64,000 nt of DNA from contig JBCCZQ010000004.1 in NCBI GenBank assembly GCA_039187315.1, positions 10,675 to 74,674 of the forward strand, given 5' to 3'. This stretch comes from Planctomycetota bacterium. Its GTDB lineage: Bacteria; Planctomycetota; Phycisphaerae; Phycisphaerales; UBA1924. Within the stretch, counting starts at the first letter, position 1. Each line of letters starts with the position of its first letter. Shown here piece by piece: positions 42,708 to 49,699 of this stretch. The position numbers and the translations under genes were made by a program. Below the pieces are notes generated by a model. It had not been told where the DNA came from. It saw nothing but the letters and a program-made list of their open reading frames with translations, and made no database searches.

Positions 42708-43376
42708 GTGCAAGCCACGATGTCCGAGTCCATGCCCAAGCTCATGCCAGATCCGACACCAGATCCGACACCAGATCCGACGCCACAGCCCAAGCCAGCC
42801 CCGGCGTCCCCGCCGGATCCCGAGGCGACGGCGGATGCCGATGCAGCGCAGGCCGGTAGACCTGCCGCGCCGGAGTCGGTCGGGATGCGTCGCGGGTTTG
42901 CGCCCGTGGCTGGGGTGCTGGCGCTGCTGATCCCTGGGATGGGGCACGCCCTGCTGGGACTGCGGGTCCGCGGCAGCCGGATCGCTGCTGGCGTGCTCGG
43001 CCTGTTCGCGTTCGGCCTGCTGATCGGGGGGATCGACGCGGTCGACAGCCGCGAGGACCGCTGGTGGTACATGGGCCAGGCGCTCGTGGGCCCGACCGCG
43101 TGGGCGGTCGATACGGTGCACCAGAGCTGGTTCAAGCACCCCGCTCGGGATTCGTCGCTGCCGCGCAAACCTGCCCCGGGTGAGGTGGTGACCAGCGAGG
43201 GGACGATCGAGTACGGCGGGGCCGCCGCGCCCGAGCCGCGGGTGCGCAAGGGTCTGGGCCGGGTCAACGAGATCGGCTCGCTGGCGTGTGCGCTGGCGGG
43301 CTTGATGAACGCGATCGCCATCCTCGACGCTGCCTTCCCCCCGCTGCGACGGAGAAAGGAAGGCCTGAAGCTGTGA
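42708..43376 (+). CDS. Membrane protein (PDPT-repeat N-terminus, 2-3 TM helices)
   Basis: The helices VAGVLALLIPGMGHALLGL, AAGVLGLFAFGLLIGGI and LACALAGLMNAIAIL are present. The N-terminal repeat is PDPTPDPTPDPTPQPKP. Confidence 0.6.
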   Translation: MQATMSESMPKLMPDPTPDPTPDPTPQPKPAPASPPDPEATADADAAQAGRPAAPESVGMRRGFAPVAGVLALLIPGMGHALLGLRVRGSRIAAGVLGLFAFGLLIGGIDAVDSREDRWWYMGQALVGPTAWAVDTVHQSWFKHPARDSSLPRKPAPGEVVTSEGTIEYGGAAAPEPRVRKGLGRVNEIGSLACALAGLMNAIAILDAAFPPLRRRKEGLKL

Positions 43377-43384
43377 CAGCTGCG

Positions 43385-43642
43385 ATGATCAAGCCCGAGC
43401 TGCTGACACTCGCCTACCGCCCGCTGCTCGACCCGCTGCCGATCCACGGCCACGAGTGGGCCGCGCTGCCGGTCATCGCGCTGCTGATGGCGATGGCGTA
43501 CCGCGGGGTGCGCACGGAGCACATCGACCGCTACTGGCGCGGGGTCTTCCGGGTCGCGGGTGTCATCGTGCTGGTGATGGTCGGCCTGAGCGCCGGCAGC
43601 TGGGTCCTGATCGAGCTCGCCCGGATGGTCTCCCCGGCCTGA
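43385..43642 (+). CDS. Small two-helix membrane protein
   Basis: The helices are WAALPVIALLMAMAY and VAGVIVLVMVGLSAGSWVLI. An alternative GTG at 43373 would overlap the upstream stop (GTGA). Confidence 0.5.
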   Translation: MIKPELLTLAYRPLLDPLPIHGHEWAALPVIALLMAMAYRGVRTEHIDRYWRGVFRVAGVIVLVMVGLSAGSWVLIELARMVSPA

Positions 43643-43650
43643 GCGGTCGT

Positions 43651-45114
43651 CTAGGCGTAGCGGCTGCGATCGGTGCGGAACGGCTCGTCGAGGTTCACGA
43701 TCATGTACCGCAGCGCGTCCGCGGCGTGGTCGGGGCCGTCCTTGGCCGGCTCGAGGCTCGTCGGCGACTGCTCCGGGTAGTGGTAGCGCTCGAGCGCGTC
43801 GATCAGGTGCACGCACCGGCGGTGGATGAGCAGCTTCGCAGGGCCCGACGCGGGCGCGAGCCGGGCTGTCACGAGCCGGATCCCCTGCTGGACGGCCGAG
43901 GGACGGGCGCGGACGGTCAGGCCGGCGTGTCGCAGCACAGCGATGTCGCTCAGCCCGGTCTGACCGGAGCGCTGGTGGCCGGCGGGGTCGACGCCGATCC
44001 AAACCGGCGCTGGCCAGCCGCCGCCGCAGATCGCGCGGGCGTGGTCTTCGAGCACGGTCTCGCGTTCAACGCGTTCGCCGACAACGCGGACCACGCCCTC
44101 TCGGTCGACGCACGCGTGCAGGACGACGGTCGGTGCCCGGAATCCGAAGTCCATGCCCGCGATCCAGGTCAGTCCCGACGCATCATGCTCGACCGCATCA
44201 TCGAAGACGTGCGCCGTCCGGTCGAAGGCCGGGTAGACCGCGTCCGTTCGGCGTGGGCGTTTGCAGAGCATCTCGGACTCCCAGACGGGCAGCGAGACGC
44301 GGCGCTTCATCGTGATCGCGTCTTCGATGTCGATGTGACCTTCCTGCTCGGGCGGGAGCACCTTCGCGCGGCCGCCGCACTCGTCCCAGAGCGCGCAGGG
44401 GGTGCCGTCTGCTGCGTGGCATTGAAACTCGTCGGTGCAGCGGGCGAGGACGTCGGTGACGCCCCACTTGAACAGGGCTCGCGTGCCGCGTTGCGCCTCG
44501 CTGACGAGGTCGGCCATCATGCCAAATGGCCGGTGCATGGTCGAGAGGCACTCGATGACGCCGCGGACGCGTCCGCCCTCGAGGTTGGTCGACCGCGTGA
44601 CGAGCTGGGCGGCCTCCCAGATAGCTGGGCTGATCAGGTCCACCTCGTCGCAGCGGAGCTTCTGGACGCGTGTGCCTCGGATGGCGGCGTGGCTGGCGGC
44701 GAGGAGCTCGACGCGGGAGCCGCTGGTCAGCCGCAGGCGCTTGTCGGTCGGCTTGCCATCGACGAGCTCGGCGAAGCCGGGTCGCTCGAAGATGCCGCGG
44801 AGGTGCGCGTGCATGCGGCCCGCTTGCTCGAGGCTGCCCGCAACGATGCGGATCTCGACGCCGGGCTTGAAGACCATGTCCAGTGCCGTGGCGACGGCGC
44901 CCAAGAACGTCTTGCCCCCGCCGCGGTTGGCCCAGACGACCGCGTCGCGCGGCCTGCGGTCCTCGAAGAAGGCGTGGCAGATATAGGCGAACGGTGCGCC
45001 CAGGCCCTGGCAGCCGGCGGGCGTCACCGCCCCCATCGGCGGACGGGGCATCGTTACCCCGATGCGCTCCCGGAGGAACCCGTGCAGCTGGTCATCGTTT
45101 TCTGGCCGGTCCAT
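43651..45114 (-). CDS. Terminase-large-subunit-like ATPase-nuclease (orphan TerL)
   Basis: Walker A (VVWANRGGGKTFLG), Walker B (KLRCDEVDLI) and an RNase-H-like nuclease half with acidic motifs (IAGMDFGF, WIGVDPAG, GPDHAADALRYM) are all present. The start is ambiguous: 45180, 45114 or 45051. Confidence 0.75.
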   Translation of the reverse strand: MDRPENDDQLHGFLRERIGVTMPRPPMGAVTPAGCQGLGAPFAYICHAFFEDRRPRDAVVWANRGGGKTFLGAVATALDMVFKPGVEIRIVAGSLEQAGRMHAHLRGIFERPGFAELVDGKPTDKRLRLTSGSRVELLAASHAAIRGTRVQKLRCDEVDLISPAIWEAAQLVTRSTNLEGGRVRGVIECLSTMHRPFGMMADLVSEAQRGTRALFKWGVTDVLARCTDEFQCHAADGTPCALWDECGGRAKVLPPEQEGHIDIEDAITMKRRVSLPVWESEMLCKRPRRTDAVYPAFDRTAHVFDDAVEHDASGLTWIAGMDFGFRAPTVVLHACVDREGVVRVVGERVERETVLEDHARAICGGGWPAPVWIGVDPAGHQRSGQTGLSDIAVLRHAGLTVRARPSAVQQGIRLVTARLAPASGPAKLLIHRRCVHLIDALERYHYPEQSPTSLEPAKDGPDHAADALRYMIVNLDEPFRTDRSRYA

Positions 45115-45862
45115 GGTCCCCGTCCCCTGTTTCGGATCGTGCTTTCGGTCGCTCGGCGGCGTAGGCGATGGGCGGGGCAAGCAGGGCGCCTGCAGCGAGG
45201 GCGGCCAGGCGGTCGACCGTCAGGCCGCGGGCCCGGCGGGTCGACGCGTTGGCTCTCGACCACGTGCGCAGCGCGCGTTCGAGCGATGGCGACGGAGTCG
45301 TGCGCTTGCGCAGCAAACGTTCGGCTGCTTCTTCGACGTCCGCGGTGCGAAGCGCGGCCAGCAGCCTGCGGTCACGGTCGGGCATCGCCGGCGCGGGCAG
45401 GCGTCGCATGCCGGCCCGCTCAAAGAACGGGCAGACGGCGCCCATGGCGGCGATCGCCTCGGTGTGCTCGGTCTCCGGGTCGGCGAGGTATGCGCGAACG
45501 AGCCGCACCGCGAGGCTCAGGCCGCGGTAGCGAGGATCGACGATGACGCGGCTGATGGTGCGCAGGCCCGTGTTGATCGCCCGGGCGCGGGCCCGCTTGT
45601 CGGGGTCGCAGTAGCGTCCTGGCCAGGCGTGTGCTCGCCAGAGCCCGTTGAGCGTCGGCCGGCTGCTGACGAGCACACCGGCGAGCTCGCCGCGGCGGGT
45701 CTCGACGGCTCGCAGGACGCGGCAGATCGTGGCGGGATGCCCCGGTCGGTAGTGCAGCGGGGCGAGGGCGCGGTAGTTGCTGCGCTCGCCCGGCTCGATA
45801 CGGAGCCTGTGGTGCTGATCGGGCCCCGGTTTGGTGTCGATCAGGAACGCCGGTGTTCGCAT
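45092..45862 (-). CDS. GNAT-fold (acetyltransferase-like) protein
   Basis: The acetyl-CoA-binding-type motif RVIVDPRYRGLSLAVRLVRAYL (Q/RxxGxG/A-like) precedes a beta-alpha pattern. The ATG overlaps the upstream gene by 22 nt. Confidence 0.6.
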   Translation of the reverse strand: MRTPAFLIDTKPGPDQHHRLRIEPGERSNYRALAPLHYRPGHPATICRVLRAVETRRGELAGVLVSSRPTLNGLWRAHAWPGRYCDPDKRARARAINTGLRTISRVIVDPRYRGLSLAVRLVRAYLADPETEHTEAIAAMGAVCPFFERAGMRRLPAPAMPDRDRRLLAALRTADVEEAAERLLRKRTTPSPSLERALRTWSRANASTRRARGLTVDRLAALAAGALLAPPIAYAAERPKARSETGDGDHGPARKR

Positions 45863-47014: not shown

Positions 47015-47058
47015 GAAAACCTCGTTTCTAAGTTGTTTGGGGTTGCAATCGCGCCGAT

Positions 47059-47084
47059 CTGTGTTCACAATTGAAAAAACACAG
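47059..47084. promoter_or_regulatory. Candidate operator: perfect inverted repeat CTGTGTT-N12-AACACAG overlapping a TTGCAA-N17-CACAAT promoter-like element
   Basis: I read this directly at 47059-47065 / 47078-47084. The -35-like TTGCAA is at 47043-47048 and the -10-like CACAAT at 47066-47071. It lies in the 112-bp AT-rich divergent spacer. Confidence 0.5.
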
Positions 47085-47126
47085 CAGCATGTTCTCTCAA
47101 GACAGAACTATTTGCAAGGAACTTGT

Positions 47127-48448: not shown

Positions 48449-49699
48449 ATGGCGAAGATGTTCTACTCGCTCGACGAGGCGGCGCAGGCGTTGGGCAAGA
48501 CGCCCGCCGAGATCCGGGCGATGGTCGAGTCGGGCGAGTTGCAGGAGTTCCGTTCGGGGGACGATCTTGTCGTCAAGCGTGAGCAGGTCGACCTGCTGCG
48601 CGGCGACGATCCGAGCGAAGGCTCGATCGCGAGTGAGATCCTCGGGACGGGCGACACGGGCGTTGGTGAGGTCGGCGCCGAGGCGTCCGCGTTCGACGAG
48701 GACTCGCTGGGCATGATCGGCTTGTCGGACTCGGTGATGGACGACGATGCGCCGATCGTCGATGCGGGCAACGAGGACAGCCTGGTGATCGGCCTCGAAG
48801 AGAGTTCCATGGCTGGCTCGCTGAACCAGGAGGATCTTGGGCAGCCGGAGCTTGGCGATGAGATGGCGGACGAGCCGTCCGACACGGGCGTGTCGGCAAG
48901 CTCGGGCGGGAGCATCGGGCTGACGGACTCGGTGACGGACACGGCCGCGGTCGTTGGCGACACAACGGCGGGCAGCAGCACGAGCGATCCTTCGCCCAGC
49001 GGCGACTCGGTTGGTTTGAGCGGCAGCGGCCTTGGCAGCGGTATCGGCTTGGCGCCGCTGACCGATCCTGCTGACCCCGGCGCGAGCGGTTCTGGCGTGA
49101 TCAGCCTGGCGAACGAGTCGGGCGGCGATATCCCGATCGAGCTCGGCAGCGTGGACGCGAAGGATCAGACGGGGATCAGCATCTTCGACGACTCGCTGGA
49201 GGACGACGACGCGTCCGCGGCGACGATCGTGACCACGGATGCGACGGCGCCCGACATGTCGACGCCGGACTTCGATGCCGGCGCATCGGGCTCGGGCCTG
49301 CTGGACCTGACACGCGAGGGTGACGACACGTCGCTGGGTGTCGACCTGATCGGCGATGCGGGCGGGAGCGCCGCGGGCGTCGACGCCGGCGTAGCGGCTG
49401 GTGCGTTGTTCGAAACGCCCGACGCTGGCGAAACGGATCTGGCGACGGCTGCGCCGATGGCGGCATTCGCCGAGGCGTACGACGGGGGCGGGTCGGGGCT
49501 CGTTGGTGGGCTGGCGCTGGGAGTGATCCTCGCGGCCCTGTTCACAGGTGCGATCGGCATCCTGTGGATGCGCGGTGGCACCGGTGCGCAGTTGTTCGAG
49601 CTGATCGGCGATGTGCCGTGGTTCGCGCCGGCGGCGGCTATCGCTGGGCTGACGCTGGTGGTCACGCTGATCGCGTGGGCGCTTGGGCGTCGCGGCTGA
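48449..49699 (+). CDS. Excisionase/MerR-type HTH protein with long acidic disordered region and C-terminal membrane anchor
   Basis: The N-terminus MFYSLDEAAQALGKTPAEIRAMVESGELQEF is HTH_17-like. About 280 aa of D/S/G-rich sequence follows, then two C-terminal TM helices (LVGGLALGVILAALFTGAIGILW, APAAAIAGLTLVVTLIAWAL). Confidence 0.65.
   Translation: MAKMFYSLDEAAQALGKTPAEIRAMVESGELQEFRSGDDLVVKREQVDLLRGDDPSEGSIASEILGTGDTGVGEVGAEASAFDEDSLGMIGLSDSVMDDDAPIVDAGNEDSLVIGLEESSMAGSLNQEDLGQPELGDEMADEPSDTGVSASSGGSIGLTDSVTDTAAVVGDTTAGSSTSDPSPSGDSVGLSGSGLGSGIGLAPLTDPADPGASGSGVISLANESGGDIPIELGSVDAKDQTGISIFDDSLEDDDASAATIVTTDATAPDMSTPDFDAGASGSGLLDLTREGDDTSLGVDLIGDAGGSAAGVDAGVAAGALFETPDAGETDLATAAPMAAFAEAYDGGGSGLVGGLALGVILAALFTGAIGILWMRGGTGAQLFELIGDVPWFAPAAAIAGLTLVVTLIAWALGRRG

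Follow-up and report, generated by a model that had tools for sequence, protein, structure and literature searches.

A terminase large-subunit homolog in the window

The 64,000-nucleotide stretch of DNA analyzed here (the window) is part of contig JBCCZQ010000004.1 (C4) in the assembly GCA_039187315.1, which comes from a Planctomycetota bacterium of the order Phycisphaerales. It carries a homolog of the large subunit of phage terminases (TerL), which is the last gene of an operon of overlapping genes that runs from a dual helix-turn-helix (HTH) protein through an ABC-type ATPase and a GNAT-type acyltransferase to TerL, with an XRE-S24 repressor encoded on the opposite strand. The minus-strand open reading frame (ORF) at positions 43651 to 45180 is real and uninterrupted in the ORF list and encodes 509 amino acids (aa) from a TTG codon; in its homologs and in the collection's own gene call, the start is at ATG 45114, which gives a protein of 487 aa. 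The protein is laid out as an N-terminal P-loop ATPase, a conserved cluster of four cysteines, and a C-terminal RNase H-like nuclease. A sequence-only reading of this DNA had claimed an intact ORF with all ATPase and nuclease motifs preserved, and every motif that it quoted is recovered: WANRGGGKTF (Walker A), KLRCDEVDL (Walker B), GMDFG, GVDPAG, and DGPDHAADALRY. Its remark on host-like composition also holds, as the GC content at third codon positions (GC3) of TerL is 0.89, the same as in the neighboring genes.

An alignment with 19 homologs (54 to 76% identity) contains about 130 invariant columns, which include every catalytic motif (WANRGGGKT, LRCDEV, STMH, GMDFG, VDPAG, and DGxDHxxDALRY) and residues D322, D376, D462, and D466 of the nuclease domain. 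Three cysteines of the cluster are invariant and the fourth is nearly so; the position after LRCDEV is occupied by D or E. The Pfam domain Terminase_6C (PF17289) matches residues 342 to 496 with an E value of 4.9e-7, over the curated cutoff, and the PHROG family phrog_2 (terminase large subunit) matches with an E value of 3.9e-19; a whole-genome search with PF17289 missed even this TerL and is thus insensitive. All 35 of the best PDB fold matches of the AlphaFold model (mean pLDDT, 72) are large terminases. Its ATPase part fits the ATPase domains of the D6E, T4, and P74-26 enzymes, the nuclease domain of P22 aligns with the model at a TM score of 0.75, and the large terminase of phage D6E is the only solved structure found by a profile of the 19 homologs.

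The two-domain fold (ATPase plus RNase H-like nuclease) and the catalytic motifs are common to TerL, D6E terminase, T4 gp17, Sf6 gp2, and the P22 gp2 nuclease. Unlike these solved headful-type terminases, to any of which it is only 11 to 18% identical, TerL has a conserved four-cysteine insert between its two domains and is encoded without an adjoining portal. Its N-terminal part belongs to the ASCE P-loop ATPases, with Walker A, Walker B, and coupling motifs, and its C-terminal part to the RNase H-like nucleases with conserved acidic residues; ATP-driven packaging and cleavage of DNA is its predicted activity. It does not stand beside a terminase small subunit (TerS) and a portal in a virus or prophage: the contig is without portal and capsid genes, and the flanks are conserved host genes.

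Conservation and selection in Phycisphaerae

The best 120 TerL homologs are full-length and 52 to 76% identical to the protein encoded here, and those that are named come nearly all from metagenome-assembled genomes of Phycisphaerales or Planctomycetota, with some of the contigs of megabase size. At least 569 species-level genomes encode a TerL relative, and in a phylum-wide sample strong matches are limited to the class Phycisphaerae. The gene is single-copy, is found in 35 of 41 close relatives, and across the class retains approximately 40 to 77% identity with all catalytic motifs invariant. The maximum-likelihood TerL tree recovers the genus, family, and order groupings and places phage sequences outside them. 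The order repressor/HTH/ABC/GNAT/TerL is kept, along with the host flanks (DUF6677 and others), in all 12 loci examined. Synteny, which the sequence-only reading had proposed to check, thus turns out to be that of single-copy orthologs that have the same ATPase and GNAT neighbors and follow the taxonomy across the class.

Some families (designated here by f numbers; genomes and contigs are designated by G and C numbers) depart from this arrangement. In f3 to f5 and f7, a ParB-like gene and a small gene of ~150 aa are inserted between GNAT and TerL; by comparison of gene content, both of these have been lost in the genus studied here. The small protein was considered as a candidate TerS and placed by position alone; it matches nothing in PHROG or Pfam, and BLAST shows no similarity to a prophage TerS. 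In f8, TerL and GNAT lie 30 kb apart or on separate contigs, and both are retained in 5 of 5 genomes. In five genomes of family f87 (G354, G360, G375, G397, and G421), as well as in G019 and G024, TerL matches fall into 2 to 4 pieces within one frame of 600 to 1,050 aa, and these TerLs seem to carry insertions rather than frameshifts.

In the TerL copy of this genome, a single private change falls within the 107 near-invariant columns of the 120 homologs, compared with 0 to 3 in other genomes. Its ratio of nonsynonymous to synonymous substitutions (dN/dS; NG86) against the nearest relative is 0.27, within the range of the flanking host genes (0.20 to 0.47); with synonymous sites near saturation and biased in GC3, such values are useful only relative to neighboring genes, and the one for the repressor is an artifact of the high-scoring segment pair that was picked. 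Relative to the sister genome G004, the TerL branch-length ratio is 1.4, with a range of 1.25 to 1.64 across TerL, GNAT, and ABC and of 0.6 to 3.7 across control genes. Together with the invariant motifs, these values support the earlier view of an intact TerL under purifying selection rather than a decaying prophage gene. We accordingly consider it very improbable that the locus is a functionless prophage remnant that has not yet decayed, an explanation already largely refuted for the TerL family. The lack of head genes in this genome (see below) and the slightly longer TerL, GNAT, and ABC branches would fit such a remnant, but the branch ratios are inside the control-gene spread, and the class-wide conservation, the dN/dS value, and the single private change all speak against it.

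A packaging block and a separate head locus

The same sequence-only reading described TerL as having no packaging partners. This does not hold for its immediate neighbors, as the adjoining HTH, ABC ATPase, and GNAT genes form a block known from phage packaging regions. In Pseudomonas phage nickie, the genes are arranged in the row ParB, methyltransferase, ABC, x, GNAT-like, x, DNA-binding protein, TerL, portal, and three of its proteins (ABC, GNAT-like, and ParB) have homologs in the packaging locus. The ABC ATPase encoded here is 31% identical to nickie gp157 ("ABC transporter"), and its ortholog in G027 is 44% identical (E value, 2.5e-49); GNAT is 24% identical to gp155 (E value, 3e-13) and matches phrog_886 with an E value of 1.3e-9. 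The ParB/ABC/GNAT-like families of nickie gp160 to gp151 occur in equal order directly before the terminase, as in the packaging locus. In contrast to the phage block, the one described here is chromosomal and host inherited, has no portal or capsid after it, and in this genus has lost the ParB-like gene and the small gene. Among cultured phages, TerL identity does not exceed 25% over most of the length, with up to 35% on short segments. The closest viral TerLs, on two IMG/VR contigs, are 31 to 32% identical, and a portal gene follows them directly.

ABC-GNAT pairs in phages are predicted to acylate a DNA base, according to section 3.4.7 of PMC7824862, which cites Iyer, Zhang, Burroughs, and Aravind (2013), and phage DNA modification enzymes often neighbor ParB and terminase genes (PMC13229309). 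The ABC ATPase and GNAT described here have the features of such a system, being adjoining or fused and linked to ParB and terminase genes; about 10 ABC-GNAT fusions of 410 to 446 aa occur among the GNAT homologs listed. By analogy, acyl transfer to a DNA base is their predicted activity.

In related genomes, a probable capsid partner is encoded elsewhere. Searches for an HK97-type partner, as in a gene transfer agent (GTA), using the HK97 capsid family (PF05065), Phage_portal (PF04860), and the portal family phrog_12, revealed only sporadic prophages, in 6, 3, and 9 of the 41 genomes, respectively; that candidate was rejected, and at first the outcome seemed to speak against a capsid partner of any kind. 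The SU10-type family (SU10_MCP, PF17236) changed this view: it is found in 33 of the 41 relatives, and family f2 lacks both capsid and TerL. In a class sample of 151 Phycisphaerae genomes that are at least 90% complete, 84 have TerL and capsid, 53 have neither, 10 have TerL only, and 4 have capsid only (odds ratio of 111, in a statistic that ignores kinship). In family f89, both genes are present in the identical 5 of 21 genomes. Among the TerL-only cases are pseudogenes, fragments, and divergent copies; TerL of G289 contains a stop codon and G031 retains only a TerL remnant, and the capsid is absent from both genomes.

The head locus of G001, a genome of the same genus, encodes a portal (phrog_104/phrog_64), a coiled-coil scaffold-like protein, a capsid protein (phrog_1328), and small proteins, with no terminase. 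In G038, the head locus has ~7 kb more of codirectional genes, with one weak tail-collar match. The distance from capsid to TerL is 9 to 20 kb in f3, f5, and f8 and 60 to 240 kb in f1. In these relatives, the probable packaging partners of TerL are thus in a terminase-less portal/scaffold/capsid locus that co-occurs with it. A prophage of a planctomycete from outside Phycisphaerae encodes TerS, TerL (35% identity), a portal (phrog_64), and a major head protein (phrog_1328). Because the portal and capsid families of the head locus are those of this prophage, whose TerL is related, both loci plausibly come from one prophage. In the f8 genome G196 (C33:289344-292995), GNAT is located ~2 kb 3' of the capsid gene and TerL is on a different contig, an arrangement suggesting that the accessory genes can travel with the head locus.

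From the conserved operon, its vertical inheritance, and the co-occurrence with capsid genes, TerL is probably the enzyme that packages DNA in a particle system that is phage derived, vertically inherited, split between two loci, and controlled by a CI-type switch; in this genome, replacement of the head locus would have orphaned it.

The head site in this genome and alternative explanations

Neither the window nor the rest of contig C4 has a match to PF05065, PF04860, phrog_12, or PF17236, which bears out the earlier claim that no capsid-building genes are nearby. In G001 and G004, which belong to the same genus, the head operon lies between the orthologs of C4:8-583 and C4:4268-4750. The corresponding segment here, C4:584-4036 (3.4 kb, ~6.6 kb before the window start), holds no head genes but two others, one for a TPR protein that weakly matches SIR2-like proteins and one for a protein of 309 aa; the residue of the head locus in this genome amounts to 39 residues of its last small gene. 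Thus, the portal/capsid module that the sequence-only reading had named as potential counterevidence exists in relatives, whereas in this genome the head site holds other genes. TerL is truly without a capsid here unless the bin missed a relocated copy. With the head genes replaced at the syntenic site, the operon is probably either a recently orphaned half or has a second use. As to the replacing genes, the TPR protein (~800 aa) contains TPR_12 repeats, a weak SIR2_2 match, and an in-frame stop at C4:2062-2064, and the 309-aa protein has no assigned family.

Several observations weigh against a split particle system. The operon is whole and intact here despite having no head genes to serve. 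PF17236 finds nothing in this genome's assembly, which is 95% complete, and none of the 13 proteins of the G038 particle locus has a match in this genome, nor do the head proteins of G001. The ParB-like protein and the small protein in the TerS position are not found elsewhere in this genome, and presumptive tail genes are absent from the genus. The complete genome of G027 has kept the six-gene operon with no portal or capsid, and its TerL, with 9 changes at conserved sites, has no more of them than TerLs of head-bearing genomes at a similar distance (7 and 11). Finally, the counts of TerL and capsid in the class sample are not corrected for phylogeny.

With TerL undecayed both here and in the head-less G027, there is room for a capsid-independent role. 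The repressor-controlled HTH, ABC-GNAT, and TerL proteins might form a damage-inducible DNA-processing or antiphage module, in which TerL would be an ATP-driven translocase-nuclease and ABC-GNAT its DNA- or protein-acylating partner, and the link to the capsid would be historical only. The operon is intact without head genes in 10 of the 94 TerL-positive genomes of the class sample, as it is in the two genomes just discussed; TerL and GNAT of f8 are unlinked yet both kept in all five genomes, and the DNA base acylation predicted for ABC-GNAT pairs in the cited section of PMC7824862 would suit such a module. We nevertheless regard it as doubtful, given the strong co-occurrence of TerL and capsid with several joint absences, the TerL-only cases that are degraded or divergent copies, and the fixed syntenic position and near-universal presence, which are unlike those of typical defense islands. 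Further, none of the PADLOC defense models matches TerL, GNAT, or HTH, and the ABC ATPase and the repressor HTH give weak partial matches only. The narrower proposal that the operon has its own capsid-free function, as a damage-inducible translocase-nuclease with an acylating enzyme, and was kept after the loss of every head gene is slightly more doubtful still; if true, this terminase would be the first to have been recruited as an enzyme of the cell.

Structural genes occur in the assembly only within an unrelated prophage on contig C5, which carries a terminase of its own. This prophage-like cluster at the contig end (C5:66000-83172) encodes TerL (C5:81060-82391), a portal and MuF-like fusion (78678-81047), a fusion of scaffold and HK97 capsid (76417-77973), and tail-like proteins. 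It was rejected as the partner of the TerL in the window, having its own TerL and being sporadic and strain specific among the relatives. Elements of the phage-inducible chromosomal island (PICI) type, including Staphylococcus aureus pathogenicity islands (SaPI), redirect phage capsids with their own terminase subunits. A locus of this kind, sending host or island DNA into the capsids of phages that infect the cell or reside in it (the C5 prophage, for example), would combine a CI-type repressor with a terminase module and lack structural genes, as observed here, and a resident prophage with portal and capsid is at hand. Such hijacking is quite improbable, though, for a locus that occupies one chromosomal position with conserved host flanks across the order, has no integrase or replication gene seen in the operon, and shows vertical inheritance of TerL; the sporadic occurrence of the C5 prophage, with a terminase of its own, argues in the same direction.

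Genes and control region of the packaging locus

The features of the locus are listed in Table 1. The GNAT copy encoded here has no Pfam match, and its homologs match PF00583, PF13508, or PF13673 and are named GNAT. The ABC ATPase has the Walker A (GPSGAGKS), signature (LSEGE), and Walker B (LVLADE) motifs and the H-loop. The dual-HTH protein matches HTH_38, HTH_28, and Sigma70_r4_2 in Pfam and sigma70-ECF in NCBIfam, and it keeps its operon position across the order and in family f9.

Table 1. Features of the TerL operon and its control region (window coordinates)
Feature	Position	Strand	Remarks
Terminase large subunit (TerL) homolog, 487 aa	43651..45114	-	Pfam, PHROG, alignment, AlphaFold model
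GNAT-type acyltransferase, 256 aa	45092..45862	-	Overlaps end of ABC gene and start of TerL
Soluble ABC-type ATPase, 236 aa	45841..46551	-	Pfam ABC_tran, E value 2.2e-7
Dual sigma-70-region-4-like HTH protein, first gene of the operon, ~156 aa	46544..47014	-	ATG 47014; listed ORF from GTG 47068
Divergent control region, 112 bp	47015..47126		Palindrome CTGTGTT-N12-AACACAG at 47059-47084
CI-type repressor, XRE HTH plus S24 self-cleaving peptidase domain, 334 aa	47127..48131	+	Pfam HTH_3, Peptidase_S24

The repressor, which is syntenic with the operon in the same 12 of 12 loci, has a VVAG cleavage-site motif, a GDSM serine, and an FKRV lysine. Its HTH and S24 domains, cleavage site, and Ser-Lys dyad place it among the CI/LexA-type S24 repressors. 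It has in common with lambda CI and LexA-type repressors the combination of HTH with S24, the Ala-Gly site, and the Ser/Lys dyad, and like them it is divergent from the genes that it presumably controls. The palindrome in the control region is likely the operator of the adjoining repressor, and relatives carry TGTGTTCAC-N6-GTGAACACA-type palindromes at the corresponding spot. We considered and rejected the possibility that the repressor is the cell's LexA and the operator an SOS box: unlike LexA, which is encoded in its canonical form on contig C57, this protein appears to have an operator specific to the TerL locus, as the CTGTGTT-N12-AACACAG motif shows no enrichment elsewhere in the genome. 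Because of these two observations, it is best seen as a dedicated CI-type repressor. When the head loci of G004, G001, and G038 were searched for operator-like sequences on their upstream side, one weak match with 3 mismatches emerged. In locus L130 (G004:C13), an AT-rich spot at ~13304, 5' of the portal gene, contains an imperfect palindrome, TCTGTACGAATTCAGATGAGCACA, that has a loose likeness to the operator of the packaging locus, with 3 mismatches, and may reflect either shared control or chance.

On the far side of the repressor, 317 bp 3' of it, a plus-strand gene (48449-49699) encodes a protein of 416 aa that weakly matches the excisionase-type HTH_17 domain; being conserved only within the genus, it is probably outside the module. 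At the other end, two plus-strand genes (42708-43376 and 43286-43642), which encode a DUF6677 membrane protein and a protein of 118 aa, run toward the stop codon of TerL and leave a gap of 8 bp; as they adjoin TerL across the order, they represent stable host flanks.

A candidate gene transfer agent-like system

In the split particle system that we favor, induction, particle formation, packaging, and any gene transfer would proceed as follows. The packaging locus would comprise the CI-type repressor, dual-HTH protein, ABC ATPase, GNAT, TerL, and, where present, the ParB-like protein and the small protein in the TerS position; the separate head locus would contribute the portal, scaffold, SU10-type major capsid protein, and small proteins, with presumptive tail genes in some families. 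DNA damage would lead to RecA-stimulated self-cleavage of the XRE-S24 repressor, freeing the palindromic operator and turning the operon on. The HTH protein might recognize DNA for packaging or activate the distant head locus, the target of ABC-GNAT might be DNA or a packaging component, in line with the prediction for the phage relatives of this pair, and TerL would dock on the portal, pump DNA into procapsids, and cut it.

Such an element is a candidate for a GTA-like system, as its packaging and head genes are vertically inherited and conserved across the host clade. This genome itself lacks the head genes: PF17236 and the head proteins of G001 and G038 find no match, and C4:584-4036 is occupied by other genes. 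As in the GTA of Rhodobacter capsulatus (RcGTA) and its relatives, phage-derived packaging and head genes are fixed in the lineage, inherited vertically, and under purifying selection; as in GTAs, including RcGTA, these genes occupy more than one locus, and no integrase or replication genes are seen. The Phycisphaerae system differs from RcGTA in its host phylum and in descending from an unrelated phage, and its capsid is of the SU10 type and its TerL very divergent; its packaging genes are at a separate locus with a CI-type S24 repressor and ABC-GNAT (plus ParB); and the head genes are gone in this genome and the presumptive tail genes in the genus.

Our literature search turned up no published account of a terminase or particle system conserved in Phycisphaerae. 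If the proposed reading is true, Phycisphaerae have an undescribed, host-owned, phage-derived particle system, comparable in principle to GTAs, from a different phage lineage and with packaging genes at a separate, repressor-controlled locus. It would add Planctomycetota to the phyla with domesticated virus particles and would provide a natural setting for studying the widespread, uncharacterized ParB/ABC/GNAT genes found alongside phage terminases. This genome and G027 would then be natural "head-less" cases that bear on whether a terminase may be retained for a role outside the capsid.

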